Shown here one piece after another: positions 42,107 through 58,948 of a stretch of DNA of 64,000 bases. The notes under the pieces were generated by a model that was given only the letters and a program-made list of their open reading frames with translations, was not told where the DNA came from and ran no database searches. This DNA comes from Candidatus Shapirobacteria bacterium. GTDB taxonomy: Bacteria; Patescibacteriota; Microgenomatia; UBA12405. The stretch lies in contig JBAXAJ010000001.1 of assembly GCA_037142555.1 (NCBI GenBank), forward strand, positions 104,423-168,422. Direction: 5' to 3'. Made by a program: the position numbers and the translations under genes. Within the stretch, counting starts at the first letter, position 1; every line of letters begins with the position of its first letter.

Positions 42107-42263
42107 AATATAGGCAACTTAAATTAAAATATTAATTATTAAATTTAACTTTTTATATACGCACTCAAATGTTATTCAAATTTAAAAGATTATTAGCGCC
42201 TGTTTCTCATTTCTAATATCTTAGTGTAGCCGTGCTGTGTCGTAAAAAGTGAAGGAGTTCTTT

Positions 42264-43835
42264 ATGTTAGATAATTTTTTGTCCAGAGTTAAAGGTTTAT
42301 TTTCTGAAAAAACCTCAACTAAAACAGTCACTAAGAAAAATAGTGCAGTTAAAAAAGAAGTAAAAAAAGAAGAAGTCGTTAATCAAGATAAAAATAGGGT
42401 TGTCTTCTCACCAACCAAAACAGTTGAAGCAACTCCTGTTGCCCCAGCTCCAGTTGTTAACACAGCTCAAATTGATGCTGCCTTGCAAAATGCTAAAAGG
42501 ATAGAAGCTGATGCCAAAGCTAAAGAAACTGAAATTTTTCAACGTCTCTCTTCTCTGAATGATAAAGAGAAATACATGATTGAAAAAGAAAGATCTCTAG
42601 ACACTCAATCTGCCGAAATCAAAGCAAAAATGAATAGTGTTGAAGATCTCTATAAAAAACAATTAGAAAAATTAGAAAACATTTCTGGTCTTGATATTGA
42701 AAAAGCTAAACAATTAATAATTAGCAGCACTGAAAAGAAAATGGTCAGTTGGATTGCTAAAAAAGTTGAAGATGCTAAGGAAGAAATCAGAAACAAAGGT
42801 GATGAATTAGCCAAAGAAATTTTGATTGATAATATTCGTCATGGAGTCACTGATTATGTTGCTGAATACACTGTTTCCACTATTTCTCTTCCAGATGACA
42901 CCATCAAAGGAAAAATCATTGGTCGAGAAGGTCGAAACATTCGTGCTTTTGAAAAAGCTACTGGTGTTGAACTAGAGCTAGACGAATCTAACGATATCCG
43001 CATTTCTTCTTTTGATTCAACTAGAAGAGAAATCGCTAAACTATCTCTCGAAAAGTTGATCAAAGATGGTCGAATTCAACCTCTTAAGATTGAACAAATT
43101 GTGGCTCAAACTAAAAACGAAATGGAAAAGATTTTAATAAATGAAGGTCGAAAAATCTGCCAAGAAGTTGGAGTCTTTAATTTACCACTCGATTTAATGA
43201 GAGAAATTGGTAAATTTAAATTCCGCTACTCTTATGGTCAAAATTTAGCTAAACACACCATCGAAGCTACTAAAATTGCCACCGCCATTGCCTATGAGTT
43301 AAAAGCTGATGTCAACACTGTTCGGCTTGGAGCTTTATTACACGATATTGGTAAGGTAGTCACCGATCAAGAGGGGACTCACATTGATCTTGGTGTTGAT
43401 TTATTAAGACAATTCAAAGTCACTGAAGCCGTCATCAATTGTGTCGCTGAACACCATGAAGATAAAGAATTTTCTTCACTAGAATCAACCATTGTTTACA
43501 TTGGGGATGCCGCTTCTGGTGCTCGTCCTGGTGCTCGATATGAAGTCCATGAAGAATATCTTAAAAGAATGAAAAACATCGAAGAAGTTGCTAAAAACTT
43601 TCCTGGTGTTCTAAGTGTCGCCGCCTATCAAGCTGGACGTGAAGTTGTAGTTATTGTCGAACCTACAATAGTTTCTGACAATGAAGCTGAAGTTCTAAGC
43701 CAAAATATCGCTCAACATCTAGAAGAAGAAGCTAAATGGGCCGGTCAAATAAAAGTTACTGTTATTAGAGAGTTAAGAACTAGCAGTATTATTGTTGGTA
43801 ATAAAATCAATAATAATGCGGTAAAAAATGACTAA
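42264..43835 (+). CDS. rny: Ribonuclease Y
   Basis: N-terminal TM/coiled coil, a KH domain (IIGREGRNIRAFEKATGVEL) and an HD domain (LLHDIGK). GAAGGAG Shine-Dalgarno before ATG 42264. Confidence 0.85.
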   Translation: MLDNFLSRVKGLFSEKTSTKTVTKKNSAVKKEVKKEEVVNQDKNRVVFSPTKTVEATPVAPAPVVNTAQIDAALQNAKRIEADAKAKETEIFQRLSSLNDKEKYMIEKERSLDTQSAEIKAKMNSVEDLYKKQLEKLENISGLDIEKAKQLIISSTEKKMVSWIAKKVEDAKEEIRNKGDELAKEILIDNIRHGVTDYVAEYTVSTISLPDDTIKGKIIGREGRNIRAFEKATGVELELDESNDIRISSFDSTRREIAKLSLEKLIKDGRIQPLKIEQIVAQTKNEMEKILINEGRKICQEVGVFNLPLDLMREIGKFKFRYSYGQNLAKHTIEATKIATAIAYELKADVNTVRLGALLHDIGKVVTDQEGTHIDLGVDLLRQFKVTEAVINCVAEHHEDKEFSSLESTIVYIGDAASGARPGARYEVHEEYLKRMKNIEEVAKNFPGVLSVAAYQAGREVVVIVEPTIVSDNEAEVLSQNIAQHLEEEAKWAGQIKVTVIRELRTSSIIVGNKINNNAVKND

Positions 43836-43902: not shown

Positions 43903-44175
43903 ATGACTAAAAAAGACTTAATCGAAATCGTTTCGCAAAAAGCAAAACTCAGCAAAAAAGCTGCTAAGCAATCTGTTGAAACTTTCTTAAATGAAATTAT
44001 GAAAGCACTCTCTGGTGGAGAAGTTGTTAAGCTTTCAGGTTTTGGAACTTTCAAAACCAAAATGTTCAAAGCTAAAACTATCAAAGCTATTGGAACTAAA
44101 GAATCTAAAAAAATCGTCGCTCGAAGAATGCCTCGATACATTCCAGGAACCAAGATCAAGAAAATGGTAAAGTAA
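43903..44175 (+). CDS. hup: DNA-binding protein HU
   Basis: MTKKDLIE…GFGTFKTK…RMPRYIPGT matches the HU/IHF fold; 90 aa. Confidence 0.9.
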   Translation: MTKKDLIEIVSQKAKLSKKAAKQSVETFLNEIMKALSGGEVVKLSGFGTFKTKMFKAKTIKAIGTKESKKIVARRMPRYIPGTKIKKMVK

Positions 44176-44281: not shown

Positions 44282-47200
44282 TTGTCTAAAAATTTGATCA
44301 AGTTTAGGTTCAAATTACCAATAAAGAAAAAAGTTTCAGACTATTTTTTTGCGCCTCGTTTTTACTTCTCCAGATTTCAGTTTAATTTAATCGCTGTTTT
44401 ATTCATCAGCATCGGTCTTGCCACTGGGACTTATTTAACCATGTCCAAAGTGATTTTACCTTCAATCTTCGCTGTGTCTCAAACTTCCAACACCCTAAAT
44501 TTTGATGTCGGCAGTTCTGGTAATTATAATTATGACACCTCCTCAGTCACTATTGGTGCCAGTGGTGTCCAACCAATAGCAACCAACAAATTTTCTAATT
44601 CTAGTTTCGCCACTAATAGTGTTGGTTGGACTTCAGATATCATAGTTCCAAATGGTTATGTCAAAGTTCCTGGAAATTCAACTTTTAGTACTACTGATTT
44701 TGCTGTTATGAAATATGAAGCTAAATGTGCTTCCACAAGTGACCCTGCTACTGGTTTAACAAGTCCTACTTTTATACCATTTTATACTTATAAAAATAAT
44801 GTAGATGATTGTATTTCAGCTAATAATAAGCAAGTAGTTTCAGTAGCTAATGGATATCCAATTGCCTTAATTACTCAGCCTGATGCAATCACCAAATGTG
44901 CCAGTGTTTCTGTTTCCGGTGCCACTGCTCATTTAATTAATAATAATGAATGGATGACTATTGCCAGAAATGCTGAAGCTCAAAACACCAATTGGTCTCT
45001 AGGCGCTGTTGGTTCTGGTTATTTATATGCCGGTAATAATAACATTGATACAAGTTACTCTCATTATATTTACAATGCATCGACTAATGATACAGGTAAT
45101 TATCGTTGTGCTTACACTAACACTGGTTCTTCAGACAATCCATCTCCTTGTCCTTATAACACAGCTCAAAATACTTCTGGAACTAGGGGAAGTCAAGTCA
45201 GAGTTTTAAAATTATCAAATAATGAATCAATTTGGGATATGGCGGGAAATGTTGGAGAGTGGATTAATAATACTCAAACAGGCACAACTATAGGCCCTAG
45301 TAGTATTTTAGAGTGGAATTCTTCTAGCCTTGCTTCTGGAGCTAGAGATCTTTATGGGCCATCAAGCTCTTCATATCTTAAAGCCCAGGGAATGGGGTCT
45401 TTCACTGGTGGTGCTTTGGGTAATGTTTTTATGCGTGGAGGTATTTATCTTGACTCTTTAGATGCTGGTATTTATAGTTTAAGTTTAAGTTCTAGTTCTT
45501 CTTATTTATATCCTGGAATTGGTTTTCGTTGTGCCATTTCTGGTAATGTTTTATCACAAGTATCAAATGTTGGTTTAGGAGCAAGTGGAGCTGCAAAAAT
45601 TATTGCTAATCCTGGATCAGATTCTAAGATTTATCAGACAATGGCCAATCTTACTACCAATTCTACTTACGACTTTTCCGCCTATGTTTATAATAATACT
45701 GCTGGTGGTATTGGTGGCACAGTCAATGCTTCTATTGCTCAACTAGAATATAATGGAGTTGGAATTACTACTACCTACACTAATTCAGGTTCAGGTTGGT
45801 GGAAACTTTCCGCCACCGTCACTGCGGCCAGTGGCTCACAAGAATTTGGTCTTCTAACCAAAGCCGGCAAAACAGTCTTTTCTGATAATTTTAGTTTAAT
45901 TCCTATTATTTCTCCTATCTACACCACCACTTCTTTTTATAATCGTCAAATTATGGAATGGAGCTCTTTTAGTGCAGTTGGCACTACTTTTGCCACTTCT
46001 CCAATTACTTATCAACTTTGTTCAACCGATGCTTCTATTTGTGAAAGTAGTAATACTTGGCAATATTGGAATGTCTCCAGTTCCACTTGGTCCAACGCCA
46101 CCAATCTCACTATGACTAATACTGCCGGAGATATAAATACTCATATCAGCACTTTCCCTGTCACCAACAAAAAAATTGCTGTCAAAATCATTATGACTTA
46201 TGATGGCACCAATGTTCCAACTCTTAGTTCCATTAATTATGGTTTTAAAATTGATAATCTTGCTCCAGTGACTAATGCTTCAAGTGTAATAATGAATTCT
46301 TCAATCGGCTTAACTTGGGCTAACACAAATCCATCTTTTACTTGGACAGCTGCCACAGATGATGATCCAAGTGCTTCAGGAATAAAGGGCTACTGTCTAT
46401 CTTTATCCACTACCACCGGTGGTGTCGATCCAGTTTCTTCAAAAGGCAAACTAGGCACTTCTCCAGTCCCTATTTCTGATAATATTTGTCAATTTATTGT
46501 TCCTTCAAATTCTCTAAATTTAAATACCGCTGGCTATTTAGCCTCGGCATTACTTGATTCTGAAGAAACTTATTATTTAAACATTAAAGCTATTGATAAT
46601 GTAAACAATGTTTTCCCTACTTCAACTTATTTTGAGTTCAAATATGACTCTACTAAACCTAGAAATGTCTCTTATATTTCTCCAGCTTCTGGCAATTTTT
46701 CCAATGTCGTTGATATGAGTTTTTCTTGGCCAATCAGTGTTGGTAGTAGTGTATCTTCATCAGATAGTGGCAGTGGAATTTTGGGTTGGCAATACCAAAT
46801 AAATACTAATGATGCTGATAAATGGCAAGGAAGCACTACGGCTCCAGAATTAGGTGGCCTAAAATATATTCCTAGTGGCACTTCTAGTTATAGCCTAGTT
46901 GAAGGTAAAGATGCTATTGTTTCCGGAAACAATGTTATTTACTTCAGAACTGTCGATAAAGCCGGCAATTTTTCTACCGATGCTACTATTCGCACTGGTA
47001 ATATTGCTTTTGGTGGTGCGGCTCCTGCTTTCAACCAAAATAATAGTGTCACTATCAATCCTAATACTTCTACAACTAATTCTTTTGCTCTGTCTTGGCC
47101 AAGTGCCACTGCTACTAATGGTCAAAGTGTCACTAATTATTACTATATGTTAAACACTCCACCACCATCAACTTTAGCCACTCTACAGGGTAATATTTCA

Positions 47201-48904
47201 ACCTATATCAACAATGGCACTGCAACCACAGTTGCTGTCAAAAGTCTTCCAAATGTCAACAAAGGTACTAATACTGTCTATGTTGTTGCAGTCGATAGTG
47301 CCAACAATTATTCACCATCAAATTACACTAGTGGTACTTTTGTTCTAGATTCCAATACTCCCGACAATGTCAGCAATTTAGTTTCTTCTGATTCTTCAAT
47401 CAAATCTCAATCTCAATGGAATATTACTCTTACTTGGACCGCTCCAATCTATCAAGGTGCTGGCAATTTAATTTATCAAGTCTATCGATCAACCGATGGT
47501 GTTAATTTTGCTCAAGTTGGTTCTTCTACTGGCCTTTCCTATGTCGATAATACTCCAGCTTCAAGCAAATATTATTACAAAGTCTATACCAAAGATGGTG
47601 CCAATGCGGTCTCTTCTGGTACTAATGCTGTTTCTATTACTCCAACTGGTAAATGGACTACTTCTCCAATTATTGATTCCCAACCAACTACTTCTTCAGT
47701 AACTACCAAAAAAGCTACTGTCAATTGGTCTACTGACCGAAAAGCCGATTCTAAAATTGCTTTTGGAACTAAATCTGGCAGTTATAATACCGAAGAACCA
47801 AGTAATCCAACTCAAGTTTCCAGTCATTCCATTAATCTTACCGGTCTTTCTCCAGGAACCACTTATTATTATCGGGCCAAGTGGACAGATGAAGACGGAA
47901 ACACAGGAACCAGTGATGAAAAATCTTTCACCACTGCCGCTGCTCCAACAGTTAAAGATGTTTTAGTCAAAAATGTTAATCTAAGTTCAGCTTTAGTCCA
48001 GTTCACTTCAACTGGAGCTAGTAAAGTCAAGGTTTATTATGGCACCAGCACCGCTTTTGGCGGAGCCCTAGAAATTCATACTTCAACTTCTGAAGCTACT
48101 TATACAGTCAACTTAATTGGTTTACTCGATGGCACAAAATATTATTACAAAATAAATGCTTTTGACAGTGAATCTAGTGAATATGAAGGCACAGTTCTAG
48201 ATTTCACCACTATTCCAAGACCAAAAATTTCTAGCGTTCAACTCCAAGAAGTAGCTGGAACTTCTCAATCTACAATTTTAGTCACTTGGAACACTAACAC
48301 CGAAATTTCTTCAATTGTCACTTATTATCCAGAAGGTAAGCCAGAACAATCTCGAGATGAAGTCAGTATCCAATCAATCAAAGGCCAACACAAAATGATT
48401 CTTCGAGGCTTCACTCCTGAAACTAACTACATTTTAGTTGTTAAAGGTCGTGACAAAATTGGCAATGAAGCAGTTTCTGATAATCATCATTTCACCACTG
48501 CCACCGACACCAGACCACCACAAATTTCTAGTCTACTAGTTGAAGGTCAAAATGTTCCAACAGTTTCTGGTGCTGCTCAAGAATCAACAGCTCAATTAAT
48601 CGTTTCTTGGAACACTGATGAACCAGCCACTTCTCAAGTTGAATTTAGTGAGGGAACTGGTGCCACTTATTCTCAAAAAACTCAAGAAGATGCAAAACTT
48701 ACCTACAACCATCTAGTCATTATTTCTGGTCTAACAGCTTCAAAAGTCTATCACTTGAAAGCAATTTCCAGAGATAAAGCCAATAACACTGGTAAATCAA
48801 TTGACACTGTCACTATCACTCCAAAAGCCACTGATAATGCTCTAAACTTAGTTGTTTCCAATCTAGGCCAAGTATTTGGTTTCTTAGGAGGATTTAATAA
48901 ATAA
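44282..48904 (+). CDS. Giant membrane-anchored surface protein (1540 aa): N-terminal TM, FGE-sulfatase (SUMF1-like) domain, Ig/FN3-like repeat array
   Basis: TM helix LIAVLFISIGLATGTYLTM. IWDMAGNVGEW and …YLYPGIGFRCAISG match the formylglycine-generating-enzyme fold signature. The C-terminal half holds ~100-aa FN3-like repeats (…TVNWSTD…TYYYRAKWTDEDGNTG…). The TTG start is uncertain. Confidence 0.7.
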   Translation: MSKNLIKFRFKLPIKKKVSDYFFAPRFYFSRFQFNLIAVLFISIGLATGTYLTMSKVILPSIFAVSQTSNTLNFDVGSSGNYNYDTSSVTIGASGVQPIATNKFSNSSFATNSVGWTSDIIVPNGYVKVPGNSTFSTTDFAVMKYEAKCASTSDPATGLTSPTFIPFYTYKNNVDDCISANNKQVVSVANGYPIALITQPDAITKCASVSVSGATAHLINNNEWMTIARNAEAQNTNWSLGAVGSGYLYAGNNNIDTSYSHYIYNASTNDTGNYRCAYTNTGSSDNPSPCPYNTAQNTSGTRGSQVRVLKLSNNESIWDMAGNVGEWINNTQTGTTIGPSSILEWNSSSLASGARDLYGPSSSSYLKAQGMGSFTGGALGNVFMRGGIYLDSLDAGIYSLSLSSSSSYLYPGIGFRCAISGNVLSQVSNVGLGASGAAKIIANPGSDSKIYQTMANLTTNSTYDFSAYVYNNTAGGIGGTVNASIAQLEYNGVGITTTYTNSGSGWWKLSATVTAASGSQEFGLLTKAGKTVFSDNFSLIPIISPIYTTTSFYNRQIMEWSSFSAVGTTFATSPITYQLCSTDASICESSNTWQYWNVSSSTWSNATNLTMTNTAGDINTHISTFPVTNKKIAVKIIMTYDGTNVPTLSSINYGFKIDNLAPVTNASSVIMNSSIGLTWANTNPSFTWTAATDDDPSASGIKGYCLSLSTTTGGVDPVSSKGKLGTSPVPISDNICQFIVPSNSLNLNTAGYLASALLDSEETYYLNIKAIDNVNNVFPTSTYFEFKYDSTKPRNVSYISPASGNFSNVVDMSFSWPISVGSSVSSSDSGSGILGWQYQINTNDADKWQGSTTAPELGGLKYIPSGTSSYSLVEGKDAIVSGNNVIYFRTVDKAGNFSTDATIRTGNIAFGGAAPAFNQNNSVTINPNTSTTNSFALSWPSATATNGQSVTNYYYMLNTPPPSTLATLQGNISTYINNGTATTVAVKSLPNVNKGTNTVYVVAVDSANNYSPSNYTSGTFVLDSNTPDNVSNLVSSDSSIKSQSQWNITLTWTAPIYQGAGNLIYQVYRSTDGVNFAQVGSSTGLSYVDNTPASSKYYYKVYTKDGANAVSSGTNAVSITPTGKWTTSPIIDSQPTTSSVTTKKATVNWSTDRKADSKIAFGTKSGSYNTEEPSNPTQVSSHSINLTGLSPGTTYYYRAKWTDEDGNTGTSDEKSFTTAAAPTVKDVLVKNVNLSSALVQFTSTGASKVKVYYGTSTAFGGALEIHTSTSEATYTVNLIGLLDGTKYYYKINAFDSESSEYEGTVLDFTTIPRPKISSVQLQEVAGTSQSTILVTWNTNTEISSIVTYYPEGKPEQSRDEVSIQSIKGQHKMILRGFTPETNYILVVKGRDKIGNEAVSDNHHFTTATDTRPPQISSLLVEGQNVPTVSGAAQESTAQLIVSWNTDEPATSQVEFSEGTGATYSQKTQEDAKLTYNHLVIISGLTASKVYHLKAISRDKANNTGKSIDTVTITPKATDNALNLVVSNLGQVFGFLGGFNK

Positions 48905-55895: not shown

Positions 55896-55896
55896 A

Positions 55897-56168
55897 GAAA
55901 CTGATAAGCTGGATTTTGTTTAAGGATCATCTATCTATTCTCTCTACCTGAGGCTCTCAAAAGCTAGATATTAACGCCTCATCTTGAGATTTCCACCAGA
56001 AGGATGCTCGTTTCACTTCAGCCGCCGTAGCCTTCTTGCGAAGGTGGCTAGCTTGCTCGTCTCTGTAGCATTGCCCAAAGCTCACGCCCTGGCCCCTAAG
56101 GACTTCTGTGCTTTTTGTGGTCCAGACTTTCCTCCCCGAAAAATCGGGGTAGACCCTTCAACTTCTTT
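55897..56168 (-). ncRNA. rnpB: RNase P RNA (bacterial type A, reduced to ~270 nt)
   Basis: The minus-strand transcript contains GGAGGAAAGUCUGGAC (P4 5' strand), …ACAGAGACGAGCAAGC…, …GAAGUGAAACGAGC…, …CAAGAUGAGGCG…, and ACAAAAUCCAGCUUAUCAG (P4 3' strand, matching E. coli ACAGAACCCGGCUUAUCGG). The 5' AAAGAAGUUGA pairs with the 3' UCAGUUUCUUU to form P1. GC content is locally elevated. Confidence 0.8.
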
Positions 56169-56187
56169 AAGGTTGATGTATTTTACC

Positions 56188-56216
56188 AAAAAAAACCCCC
56201 CGAAGCTTCGGGAGGT
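56188..56216 (-). terminator. Rho-independent terminator (minus strand) for the small gene 56245-56418
   Basis: cctcccgaag/cttcggggg palindrome followed by T8 on the minus strand. Confidence 0.6.
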
Positions 56217-56244
56217 TAAAAACAAATTTTGTTTTTAATATCAC

Positions 56245-56418
56245 CTATAGCAAAGCTGCATCAGCTGCTGAAAGGATTTTGAACATTTTTGTTCCAGTTT
56301 CTGGATCAATAGTCTCAGCTGCTGGTCGTCCGTTCTTAAGAGTAACTTTCTTGACCTTAGTTACATCGATTTCAACAGTCTTTCTTGATTTTACGTTGTA
56401 AAATTTAATGGTTGTCAT
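56245..56418 (-). CDS. Small basic protein (57 aa), possibly DNA-binding with an SH3-like fold
   Basis: GGGGGTG Shine-Dalgarno 8 nt before the ATG. MTTIKFYNVKSRKTVEIDVTKVKKVTLKNGRPAAETIDPETGTKMFKILSAADAALL. A terminator lies downstream. Confidence 0.6.
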   Translation of the reverse strand: MTTIKFYNVKSRKTVEIDVTKVKKVTLKNGRPAAETIDPETGTKMFKILSAADAALL

Positions 56419-56614
56419 GAAAAATTCACCCCCTTAAAAAAAATTAATAATTTTTAACATTAATATAGAGTTTGAAAATAATATATAACCACAATCACTA
56501 AAACGGCAACGATACTTAAAATTAAGCTTTTAATTAAATCTTTTTTAATAAAATTTACTTCTTTCATTTTTATATGGCCAGTATAGCATAGACTTTTGTT
56601 ACAATAATTTAACG

Positions 56615-56972: not shown

Positions 56973-58202
56973 ATGAATAATAAAACTACAAAAATTTTTG
57001 TTTACTCAGGCTTATTTTTATTATTTTCTGGAATTTCATATTTCCTTTTTAATGCTCTAATCCCAGTCTCAATCAGTTCAATCTCTCCAAAGTCCAAAAG
57101 TTCTAAAGTCCAAACTAGTGAAACTGGTGTTTTAAGCTTTTCAGGTAAAAAAACTGAACTTTGTCCTATTAATGGCCAACTTTACACTAAAGAAGAAAAA
57201 GAAATTTGGTCTCAAAGAAGACCTCTAATGGTTATGATCGAAAACCATGAAGATGCCAGGCCTCAATCTGGTCTTCAATCAGCAGACATTGTTTATGAAG
57301 CTGTTGCCGAAGGCGGAATAACTCGTTTTATGGGAGTTTTCTATTGTGGAATTGTTGCTGGCTTTGAAAACAAATATGATGTCGGTCCAGTTCGTTCAGC
57401 CAGAACTTACTTTCTAGATCTTGCTTCTGAATATTCTGATTATCCTCTTTATAATCATGTCGGTGGTGCTAATTGTAGTGCAGCAGATTCAAAAAGTCCT
57501 TGTACTACCAATAAAAAAGCTCAAGCTATAGAACAAATTGCTGATTATGGTTGGAATAGTCAAGGAACTTGGGGTGATTTAAGTCAATTTGCACTATCAT
57601 ATAAAGCTTGTCGTCGTGAACCAGATCGAACTGATGGTGAAAAAGCTACAGAACACACTATGTATTGTTCAACTAAAGAACTCTACAACATTGCTGCCAA
57701 CAGAGGTTTAACCAACATGACTGTTGCTAAAAAGAATACTTGGGATAAAGCTTATAAAGCTTGGACTTTCACTCAAAAAGATCAAGCTTCAACCTCTGCT
57801 CCAACTGTTTCTCTAGACTTTTGGTCTGGATATAAACAATATTCAGTTTCTTGGAAATATGATTCAGTTGCAAATGTTTATGCCCGAAGCAATGGTGGCA
57901 AAGAACATATTGATTTCAACACTAAAAAAGTCATCACTGCTAAAAATATTGTAATTCAATACACAAAAGAAACCAGATCAGTTGATGAACATGCTCACAA
58001 TCTCTACGATGTAATCGGCAGTGGCAATGGTGCTCTCCTTCAAAACGGCAAAAAAAGTGACATCACTTGGTCAAAATCTACCAGAACTTCCAGAACTATA
58101 TTCAAGGATGCTAGTGGTAAGGAAGTCAATTTCGTTCCAGGAAACATCTGGGTTGAAATTTTACCTATAGGTTCAAAAGTTGATTATGAAGGCACAATCT
58201 AG
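56973..58202 (+). CDS. DUF3048-family (YerB-like) secreted/lipoprotein-like protein
   Basis: N-terminal signal/TM. RPLMVMIENHEDARPQSGLQSADIVYEAVAEGGITRFMGVFY matches the DUF3048 N-domain signature. Confidence 0.6.
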   Translation: MNNKTTKIFVYSGLFLLFSGISYFLFNALIPVSISSISPKSKSSKVQTSETGVLSFSGKKTELCPINGQLYTKEEKEIWSQRRPLMVMIENHEDARPQSGLQSADIVYEAVAEGGITRFMGVFYCGIVAGFENKYDVGPVRSARTYFLDLASEYSDYPLYNHVGGANCSAADSKSPCTTNKKAQAIEQIADYGWNSQGTWGDLSQFALSYKACRREPDRTDGEKATEHTMYCSTKELYNIAANRGLTNMTVAKKNTWDKAYKAWTFTQKDQASTSAPTVSLDFWSGYKQYSVSWKYDSVANVYARSNGGKEHIDFNTKKVITAKNIVIQYTKETRSVDEHAHNLYDVIGSGNGALLQNGKKSDITWSKSTRTSRTIFKDASGKEVNFVPGNIWVEILPIGSKVDYEGTI

Positions 58203-58764
58203 TCTAAAACATCTCTTTGTTTCTCAAACTAGACTGAAATTAATAAATACTCTCTTTTATTTACCAAAAGAAATCTATTATGTTCGTCAACTAGTCAGAC
58301 TTCTAGATGAAGAAATCAATTCAGTCAGACGTGAACTTGATAATCTTAAAAAGGCTGACATTGTTGAATCAGAATGGCGAGGTAACAGACTCTATTATTG
58401 GGCTAATCAAAAAAACCAACTCTTTCACGAGCTTCTAGCCTTAGCTAATAAAACTAGTGGATTGGGAGTTAAACTCCAAGACAAAAACAACGATATAGGC
58501 AAAATTAAGCTATTAATTTACAGTTATAAATTCATAACTTGTGAAAAGAAAAACCCTGATGACATTGATTTAATCATTGTCGGCAATGTTTCCTATAAAG
58601 AAGTAGAAAATAATATAAAACAAGAAGAAGAAATTCGTGGTCATGAAATAAATTACATGATAATGGATAAGAACGAATTCCAAATGCGTAAGCAAAAACG
58701 CGATCAATTTATTGTTGACTTCTTTCTCGACTGTCCTGTTGTTATAATAGGTAGTAATGAGTAA
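58186..58764 (+). CDS. Winged-HTH protein with a C-terminal nucleotidyltransferase-like (…DIDLIIVG…) region
   Basis: ArsR-like wHTH (LVRLLDEEINSVRRELDNLKKADIVES). The start could be TTG 58180. Confidence 0.45.
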   Translation: MKAQSSLKHLFVSQTRLKLINTLFYLPKEIYYVRQLVRLLDEEINSVRRELDNLKKADIVESEWRGNRLYYWANQKNQLFHELLALANKTSGLGVKLQDKNNDIGKIKLLIYSYKFITCEKKNPDDIDLIIVGNVSYKEVENNIKQEEEIRGHEINYMIMDKNEFQMRKQKRDQFIVDFFLDCPVVIIGSNE

Positions 58765-58948
58765 AGCAAGAAAAGTAATTAAAACAGGGAACAGTTTAGC
58801 CATAACTATTCCTTCAAAATCAATCAAAGATTTTAATATTAAAGAAGGGGATTTAGTTCAAGCTAAAATAAACAGAAGTAAGGCTTCAATAACCTACGTG
58901 TTTTCTGGTCACCCTCGCCAACTTTCACTAATGGCTCAAAAAAACTAA
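58757..58948 (+). CDS. SpoVT/AbrB-domain (MazE/PemI antitoxin-like) small protein (63 aa)
   Basis: VIKTGNSLAITIPSKSIKDFNIKEGDLV matches the looped-hinge-helix consensus (…GNSxxVxIPK…GxxEGDxV). Confidence 0.55.
   Translation: MSKARKVIKTGNSLAITIPSKSIKDFNIKEGDLVQAKINRSKASITYVFSGHPRQLSLMAQKN

Follow-up and report, generated by a model that had tools for sequence, protein, structure and literature searches.

The window analysed here, 64,000 nucleotides of Candidatus Shapirobacteria bacterium (assembly GCA_037142555.1, contig JBAXAJ010000001.1, positions 104,423 to 168,422), carries on its reverse strand, at 56245..56418, a strongly constrained gene for a small basic protein of 57 amino acids. By profile comparison this protein belongs to a cysteine-less, apparently metal-free branch of DUF5679, an uncharacterised zinc-ribbon family of bacteria, archaea, polintoviruses and mavirus-like elements, and it is predicted to fold as an SH3-like barrel. 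Its likeness to the archaeal proteins Cren7 and Sul7d looks best explained by a parallel route from zinc ribbon to metal-free barrel, in which the intermediates are still extant. There is about an even chance, in our estimate, that it acts as an architectural nucleic acid-binding protein beside HU.

A cysteine-less branch of the DUF5679 zinc ribbon

Used alone as the query against Pfam, NCBIfam, PHROGs and PDB sequences, the protein found sub-threshold matches only; with Pfam DUF5679 (PF18930) it scored 13.8 bits (E 0.066), the gathering cut-off being 27 bits. An exhaustive profile search of 1.84 billion representatives recovered 624 relatives at E ≤0.001, which split into two groups: cysteine-less proteins of 54-62 amino acids, and proteins with the pattern C-x2-C ... 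C-P-x-C-G. Pfam DUF5679 was matched by 39 of 65 sampled family members (best E 5e-18). The profiles of the cysteine-less and cysteine-bearing groups aligned over 55 columns in hhalign with a probability of 99.6% (E 2.8e-24), all 86 cysteine-bearing domains matched the cysteine-less hidden Markov model (HMM) at E ≤4e-8, and an HMM built from the cysteine-bearing set alone matched the window open reading frame (ORF) at E 3.9e-20. Judged by this hhalign probability and this last match, the assignment of the window protein to DUF5679, a superfamily of type-2 zinc ribbons, is secure, and the profiles identify the two groups as homologous.

The features of the protein that bear on this assignment are listed below (window coordinates).

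56383..56400, reverse strand: residues 7-12 (YNVKSR), decayed first zinc knuckle, Y-C-V-K-C-R in relatives (from the alignment)
56326..56337, reverse strand: residues 28-31 (KNGR), best-conserved motif in the entire superfamily, at the hairpin tip between strands 3 and 4 (from the alignment)
56293..56307, reverse strand: residues 38-42 (DPETG), decayed second zinc knuckle, C-P-x-C-G in relatives (from the alignment)
56248..56271, reverse strand: residues 50-57 (SAADAALL), C-terminal amphipathic helix (from the structure model, helix 51-56)

In the joint alignment the four zinc-ligand columns were occupied in the window protein by N8, S11, D38 and T41, whereas cysteine was present in 92 and 63 sequences at the two columns of the first knuckle and in 85 and 84 at those of the second. 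On this alignment all four zinc ligands have been lost, and the window protein is a metal-free derivative rather than a canonical DUF5679 member, because these four residues stand in the ligand columns. YNVKSR formed the turn between strands 1 and 2 of the structure model, with N8 and S11 in place of ligands, and DPETG the turn between strands 4 and 5, with D38 and T41 in place of ligands.

Conserved signature regions of DUF5679 were kept in the window protein: KNGRPA (residues 28-33), in which N29 and G30 were nearly invariant in the joint alignment and in both subfamilies, and GTKMFKI (residues 42-48). The common patterns were Y-x-V-K, [ML]-K-N-G-[RK]-x-A and G-T-K-x-F-[KR]-I, and length and basic charge were equal. 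The window protein differed from DUF5679 in the replacement of the four cysteines, in extra core hydrophobics, in a two-residue insertion before strand 3 and in the C-terminal helix. This helix characterised the cysteine-less branch and also occurred in a minority of cysteine-bearing relatives, its motif FK[IF]LSxxDAxxL being already present in some four-cysteine relatives (P0230, P0140, P0208). Single cysteines at former ligand positions were seen in a few close homologues (P0070, P0083, P0096; FYCVK... and ...AVCPETG...), and may be either ligand remnants or reversions.

DUF5679 has been described as an unknown domain frequent in coral polintoviruses (as a homologue of entomopoxvirus AMEV120) and in mavirus-related elements. 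No relative of the cysteine-less clade was found in a scan of viral contigs, and no paper describing the protein was found in the literature on DUF5679, on bacterial Cren7- or Sul7d-like proteins or on RNase P RNA of the candidate phyla radiation (CPR). Several relatives (P0169, P0235, P0131, P0214) were fused to an ECF-sigma-like region, a cupredoxin-like C-terminus, a coiled coil or C-terminal domains of unknown kind; in high-GC genomes, part of these fusions may reflect errors of gene calling. Archaeal DUF5679 proteins (P0179 cluster) carry the seemingly wrong JGI name “NAD-dependent SIR2 family protein deacetylase”, presumably via the zinc ribbon.

Gain of a hydrophobic core

Kaur, Iyer, Subramanian and Aravind (Sci Rep 2018; PMC5906684) derived Cren7 and Sul7 from a type-2 zinc ribbon, a class prevalent among nucleic-acid binders: the turns between strands 1 and 2 and strands 4 and 5 correspond to the former knuckles, metal chelation disappeared while hydrophobic contacts grew stronger, and the protein came to converge with SH3-like barrels. 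The fraction of sequences with a hydrophobic residue was compared at core positions of 42 cysteine-less and 85 cysteine-bearing representatives.

Position 4: 0.47 in cysteine-bearing and 0.98 in cysteine-less proteins
Position 6 (Phe): 0.15 in cysteine-bearing and 0.93 in cysteine-less proteins
Position 15: 0.47 in cysteine-bearing and 0.98 in cysteine-less proteins
Position 22 (within the two-residue insertion): 0.11 in cysteine-bearing and 0.93 in cysteine-less proteins
Position 24: 0.11 in cysteine-bearing and 0.83 in cysteine-less proteins
Position 49 (L49): 0.19 in cysteine-bearing and 0.93 in cysteine-less proteins
Position 57 (L57): 0.19 in cysteine-bearing and 0.74 in cysteine-less proteins

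The cysteine-less branch has gained core hydrophobics, which matches the mechanism published for Cren7 and Sul7 (PMC5906684). Because cysteine loss and hydrophobic gain coincide in the cysteine-less representatives, the branch seems to have repeated, in bacteria, the path taken by Cren7. An equivalent series, which runs from intact four-cysteine zinc ribbons through partial loss to a cysteine-less barrel within one family, is known from Cren7Znr and the cysteine-bearing Cren7 orthologues (PMC5906684), but those are archaeal only. Cren7 and Sul7 were found only in Crenarchaeota and Bathyarchaeota (PMC5906684), whereas homologues of the window protein occur in Woesebacteria, Shapirobacteria and other bacterial metagenome-assembled genomes (MAGs).

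Predicted fold

The window protein was modelled with AlphaFold2 from an alignment of 31 sequences (mean predicted local distance difference test score, pLDDT, 86.9). The model predicts a five-strand SH3-like barrel (strands 3-8, 13-18, 23-26, 32-37 and 44-48) with a C-terminal helix (51-56), and the same five strands and helix were predicted (pLDDT 85.3) for P0101, a 54%-identical homologue that lacks the DPETG turn. Among 350,542 PDB chains searched with Foldseek, 12 of the 13 leading matches were Cren7 or Sso7d/Sac7d, with template modelling (TM) scores of 0.5-0.6 (mostly 0.44-0.59 when query-normalised) and probabilities mostly of 0.7-0.99. Predicted viral structures matched more tightly (TM 0.72-0.73, 1.8-2.0 Å, 32-38% identity); these were DUF5679-like and zinc-ribbon models, some from uncharacterised giant-virus or metagenomic proteins and others from proteins with a zinc-ribbon annotation. 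A profile of 65 family members matched nothing under E 0.6 among PDB sequences, and thus no relative with a solved structure was identified there.

A constrained gene with strong translation signals

The ORF at 56245..56418 is a real gene with an ATG start, present in a single copy within the window (G+C content 34.6%); its product, MTTIKFYNVKSRKTVEIDVTKVKKVTLKNGRPAAETIDPETGTKMFKILSAADAALL, has a mass of 6.3 kDa, a calculated isoelectric point (pI) of 9.82 and a net charge of +4.5 (11 K+R vs. 6 D+E). The signals around it were as follows.

56245..56418, reverse strand: coding sequence of the 57-amino-acid basic protein, stop codon included (from the ORF list and translation, homologues and substitution signature)
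56426..56433, reverse strand: Shine-Dalgarno sequence GGGGGTGA, 7 nt before the ATG (from reading of the sequence)
56184..56217, reverse strand: intrinsic terminator AACCTCCCGAAGCTTCGGGGGGTT followed by a T8 run, with a 10-bp stem containing 6 G-C pairs
56480..56509, reverse strand: candidate sigma-70-type promoter, TTGCCG, 18-nt spacer, TATATT (weak consensus match)

A sequence-only reading of the window had claimed a 57-amino-acid basic protein, a strong Shine-Dalgarno sequence, a hairpin terminator belonging to the gene and the presence of HU at 43903; each of these was recovered, the HU gene as 43903..44175 on the forward strand. A Shine-Dalgarno-like motif preceded the gene in all 77 orthologous loci, and a hairpin with a T-run followed it in at least 35 of them; in the window the terminator was the sole terminator-like site of the region (0.5 expected). 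Sigma-70-like sites were no more numerous in the region than in shuffled sequence, and the promoter at 56480..56509 is a weak suggestion only. Rfam matches to tsr26, VrrA, NsiR1 and RcsR1 over the ORF and terminator were dismissed, with scores far under the gathering cut-offs.

Close homologues, which the sequence-only reading had proposed to look for in related genomes, formed 101 clusters, mostly 75-95% identical, in a search of 5.8 billion proteins, and the named ones were assigned to Candidatus Woesebacteria, Shapirobacteria or the Patescibacteria group. When one genome per species was scanned, 111 matches were obtained, from which 80 loci were kept; more than 100 genomes of Woesebacteria and Shapirobacteria carry the gene. 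Over the 77 orthologous loci, entropies at the three codon positions were 0.45, 0.25 and 1.21, and the 57 codons showed 21.4 synonymous vs. 9.7 non-synonymous differences. The small protein had a mean identity of 83% to the window copy across 64-74 genomes, vs. 54-66% for four syntenic neighbours (DUF4446, AI-2E transporter, DUF3048 and MiaA) in the same genomes. The gene is real and strongly constrained, well beyond a chance ORF, because its substitutions carry a coding signature, a Shine-Dalgarno motif is present in 77 of 77 loci and its identity exceeds that of its neighbours.

More distant cysteine-less homologues, 61-63% identical, were found in marine MAGs titled Chloroflexi and Marinamargulisbacteria (L091, 3001..3174; L089), with neighbours unrelated to those in the window (desaturase-like, peroxiredoxin). 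As these MAGs are not labelled as CPR, the cysteine-less branch is not confined to Microgenomates. The window itself belongs, by its best matches, to a Microgenomates-group bacterium of the CPR. Some public names seem mistaken: numerous contigs whose synteny is that of Microgenomates were titled “uncultured Gammaproteobacteria bacterium” (L013, L015 and others), and two further titles are doubtful, one Bacillota and one Candidatus Methanoperedens (L038, L071).

The small gene is closely preceded, on its own strand, by a hydrophobic ORF of 35 amino acids (MKEVNFIKKDLIKSLILSIVAVLVIVVIYYFQTLY, 56460..56567), and a gene of 56 amino acids was called at the equivalent place in another locus (L004, 3823-3993). 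The 35-amino-acid ORF may encode a small membrane protein or may be due to chance.

Comparison with Cren7 and Sul7d

Cren7 (PF11520) and Sul7d are textbook archaeal chromatin proteins. Their alignments were built in this work and gave shallow profiles (effective number of sequences 2.6 and 1.7); the Cren7 and Sso7d reference sequences were verified as exact PDB sequences. The hhalign probability of the family was 0.3% against Cren7 and 0.9-1.8% against Sul7d, and that of Cren7 against Sul7d only 1.1%. The NCBIfam Sul7d model (NF045555) matched residues 1-34 of the window protein at E 0.044 (13.8 bits, for a cut-off of 100 bits). In the Woesebacteria/Shapirobacteria clade the Sul7d HMM scored up to 16 bits, vs. 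a maximum of 9.6 bits in 1150 shuffles and 5.3 bits in reversed sequences; in the wider family the median was 1.6 bits, and the cysteine-bearing profile scored -1.2 bits against Sul7d sequences. The Cren7 HMM scored at most 5.1 bits on the family, within the range of shuffles, and neither Cren7 nor Sul7d was among the top Pfam families for the 65 family members.

The likeness of the N-terminus to Sul7d, claimed by the sequence-only reading, was therefore measurable (16 vs. 9.6 bits), but it was limited to one derived clade and did not amount to a family relationship (0.9-1.8%). Because this signal is confined to one clade, with no trace in the wider family or in the cysteine-bearing relatives, it looks like the result of convergence rather than descent. 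The Cren7-like segment noticed in the same reading fared similarly: the DPETG turn is common to both proteins, but in the window protein it is a decayed CPxCG zinc knuckle. The expectation of an SH3-like five-strand barrel was borne out in the predicted structure, with Cren7 and Sso7d/Sac7d as the nearest solved neighbours. Because both reference profiles are shallow, the sequence comparisons are compatible with a very remote zinc-ribbon ancestry shared with Cren7 and Sul7d.

Cren7 resembles the window protein in size (approximately 60 amino acids), in pI (9.87 vs. 9.82), in being a metal-free zinc-ribbon descendant with former knuckles at the strand 1/2 and 4/5 turns and a D-P-E-T-G turn, and in a G-R-containing loop between strands 3 and 4, KNGR being placed as the PKGRK loop of Cren7; hhalign also paired KNGR with KGRK of Cren7, in a non-significant alignment. 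The two proteins differ in the absence of significant sequence or profile similarity, in the host (archaeal for Cren7, bacterial for the window protein) and in the C-terminal helix, which Cren7 lacks and the model of the window protein has; Trp26 and Leu28 of Cren7 have no clear counterparts in the window protein, which contains no Trp. Sul7d (Sso7d/Sac7d; PF02294, NF045555) shares with it the five strands and C-terminal helix, a mass of 6-7 kDa, basic charge (pI of Sso7d 9.66) and a similar N-terminal hairpin (TIKFYNVKSRKTVEIDVTKVKKV in the window protein), and Sso7d/Sac7d chains were among the top Foldseek matches (TM approximately 0.46-0.58, query-normalised). The difference is that the likeness extends over no more than the first 34 residues and is seen in a single clade, with profile-profile probabilities below 2%, and that Sul7d is restricted to Sulfolobales.

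True membership of the Cren7 or Sul7d families, whether as an orthologue or as a horizontally acquired archaeal chromatin gene, would account for the nearest solved structures, for the NCBIfam match and the clade scores above all shuffles, and for the shared DPETG turn. It is nevertheless very unlikely: the profile-profile probabilities reach 1.8% at most, no Cren7 or Sul7d match was found in Pfam among the 65 members, the Sul7d-like signal has no counterpart in the wider family and in cysteine-bearing relatives, and the window protein is securely placed in DUF5679. Membership of either archaeal family was thus not supported.

Proposed function and alternatives

The function to which we give even odds is that of a small metal-free DUF5679-type barrel acting as a nucleic acid-binding architectural protein alongside HU. 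With the four zinc ligands lost, the enlarged hydrophobic core and the C-terminal helix would hold the barrel together instead. The protein would bind nucleic acid without sequence specificity, most likely double-stranded DNA, through a contact face made of basic positions shared across the superfamily (K10, R12, K28, R31, K44 and K47) and the KNGR hairpin tip; the DNA would be bound by the face of strands 3-5, as in Cren7. In Woesebacteria and Shapirobacteria the protein may thereby be an abundant nucleoid-associated component beside HU.

Six basic positions were kept in both subfamilies: K10, R/K12, K28, R/K31, K44 and K/R47. Relatives with Lys/Arg/Ser-rich tails, with Ala/Pro/Lys-rich H1-like tails or with tandem domains were also found (P0135, P0143, P0180, P0137, P0201, P0136). 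Non-specific nucleic-acid binding is the most likely activity in view of the small size and basic charge, the extremely high conservation, the monocistronic arrangement, the strong translation signal and these basic-tail relatives, and a nucleic-acid role is also indirectly supported by the frequency of DUF5679 in polintoviruses and mavirus-like elements. A more ambitious version, which we hold to be doubtful, is that Microgenomates and some other bacteria carry a DNA-bending chromatin protein of Cren7/Sul7d type, metal-free and derived independently from DUF5679; in a stronger form of it, Cren7 itself would descend from DUF5679.

Several observations weigh against an architectural role on DNA. 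The genome already encodes a classical bacterial nucleoid protein:

43903..44175, forward strand: HU-family protein of 90 amino acids (Pfam Bac_DNA_binding, 4.3e-21)

DNA binding is defined by W26 and L28 in Cren7 and by W24, V26 and M29 in Sso7d; none of these has a clear counterpart in the window protein. The Foldseek E-values were not significant (0.07-1), and in such a short protein a fold match is weak evidence of function. The C-terminal FKILSAADAALL, which is strictly conserved, could instead serve for docking to a protein, and the conserved close spacing to the RNase P RNA gene (rnpB) could indicate RNA, not DNA, as the ligand.

This neighbouring gene, directly downstream, was found as follows.

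55896..56166, reverse strand: RNase P RNA gene, rnpB (Rfam, 115.5 bits)
56177..56185, reverse strand: extended -10-like element TGGTAAAAT, overlapping the T-tail of the terminator, approximately 10 nt before the 5' end of rnpB

The RNase P RNA of the window and of 15 relatives was short (approximately 250-300 nt), and its best Rfam model was the archaeal, not the bacterial one (95-119 bits, full length). Downstream of the small gene rnpB was found in 15 of 20 related loci (L014, L020, L035, L041, L045, L053, L059, L063, L065, L070, L072, L081, L085, L086 and L088), but in no distant homologue locus; it lay 25-100 nt away on the same strand in the window and in 14 of these 15 loci, and approximately 960 nt away in the remaining one (L085). 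The position of TGGTAAAAT suggests that the terminator of the small gene overlaps a promoter; in some relatives (L012, L013, L022) rnpB began approximately 20 nt after the stop codon of the small gene, with no hairpin between them. The neighbourhood of the small gene (DUF4446, DUF3048, SecD, AI-2E, MiaA and YchF) was syntenic in the same genomes.

A role in RNase P function, in which the protein would bind RNA as, for instance, a cofactor or chaperone of the reduced RNase P RNA, would explain this close same-strand linkage and the loci that lack a terminator between the genes, and would be in keeping with the fit of the RNA to the archaeal model, archaeal RNase P component 4 (1X0T) being a zinc ribbon (PMC5906684). 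We regard it as improbable. Because the entire neighbourhood is syntenic, rnpB is not singled out as a neighbour; the genes of distant homologues have other surroundings and lack rnpB; the superfamily is frequent in viruses and mobile elements without RNase P (the cysteine-less clade itself was not seen in viral contigs); and in the window the strong terminator and the TGGTAAAAT element lie between the two genes. A role outside nucleic acids, as a small adaptor or regulator that docks on proteins through its C-terminal helix, is somewhat less improbable but still unlikely. The nearly invariant FKILSAADAALL tail is in its favour, as are zinc-ribbon neighbours in the fold searches such as LysW, the ZitP finger and viral repressors, but no conserved partner gene accompanies the family, and a basic charge together with basic-tail variants would be more usual in proteins that bind polyanions. 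In Sso7d, moreover, the C-terminal helix simply packs on the barrel. The least credible alternative, to which we give hardly any weight, is a cysteine-less form of a ribosomal or translation-associated zinc ribbon. Ribosomal zinc ribbons exist with and without cysteines, and small size, basic charge, high conservation and a strong Shine-Dalgarno sequence would fit such a protein; however, no ribosomal family or chain, and no fragment of a translation protein, was matched in Pfam, NCBIfam or PDB sequences, and the gene lies outside any ribosomal operon.

If the architectural reading is true, the family would be a clean natural case of convergent fold evolution with its intermediates still extant, and would place a bacterial metal-free barrel outside the range stated for Cren7 and Sul7, Crenarchaeota and Bathyarchaeota (PMC5906684). 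It would also give a testable function to the uncharacterised DUF5679, widespread in bacteria, archaea, polintoviruses and virophage-like elements. CPR bacteria, a group with an essentially unexplored chromosome biology, would gain a candidate nucleoid protein. In the stronger version, the chromatin proteins of archaea would be connected with small basic proteins of bacteria and with the DNA-associated proteins of polintons and virophages. The fold is also useful in biotechnology, where small, stable, metal-free binders are employed as Sso7d fusions and Affitins/Nanofitins. Should nucleic-acid binding be absent, the protein would be an ordinary conserved small protein.

Other genes of the window

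Upstream of the HU gene, a 528-amino-acid protein (42249..43835, forward strand) has KH-like and HD (HDIGK) motifs typical of RNase Y, as read from its sequence. A 1540-amino-acid Ser/Thr/Asn-rich protein with repeated domains (44282..48904, forward strand) is probably a surface protein. A 63-amino-acid MazE/AbrB-like (SpoVT-AbrB) protein (58757..58948, forward strand; Pfam MazE_antitoxin, 5.8e-06) is encoded just before secD by a gene that overlaps the end of an unannotated ORF of 194 amino acids (58180..58764), and this pair was conserved in two related loci (L001 and L003).

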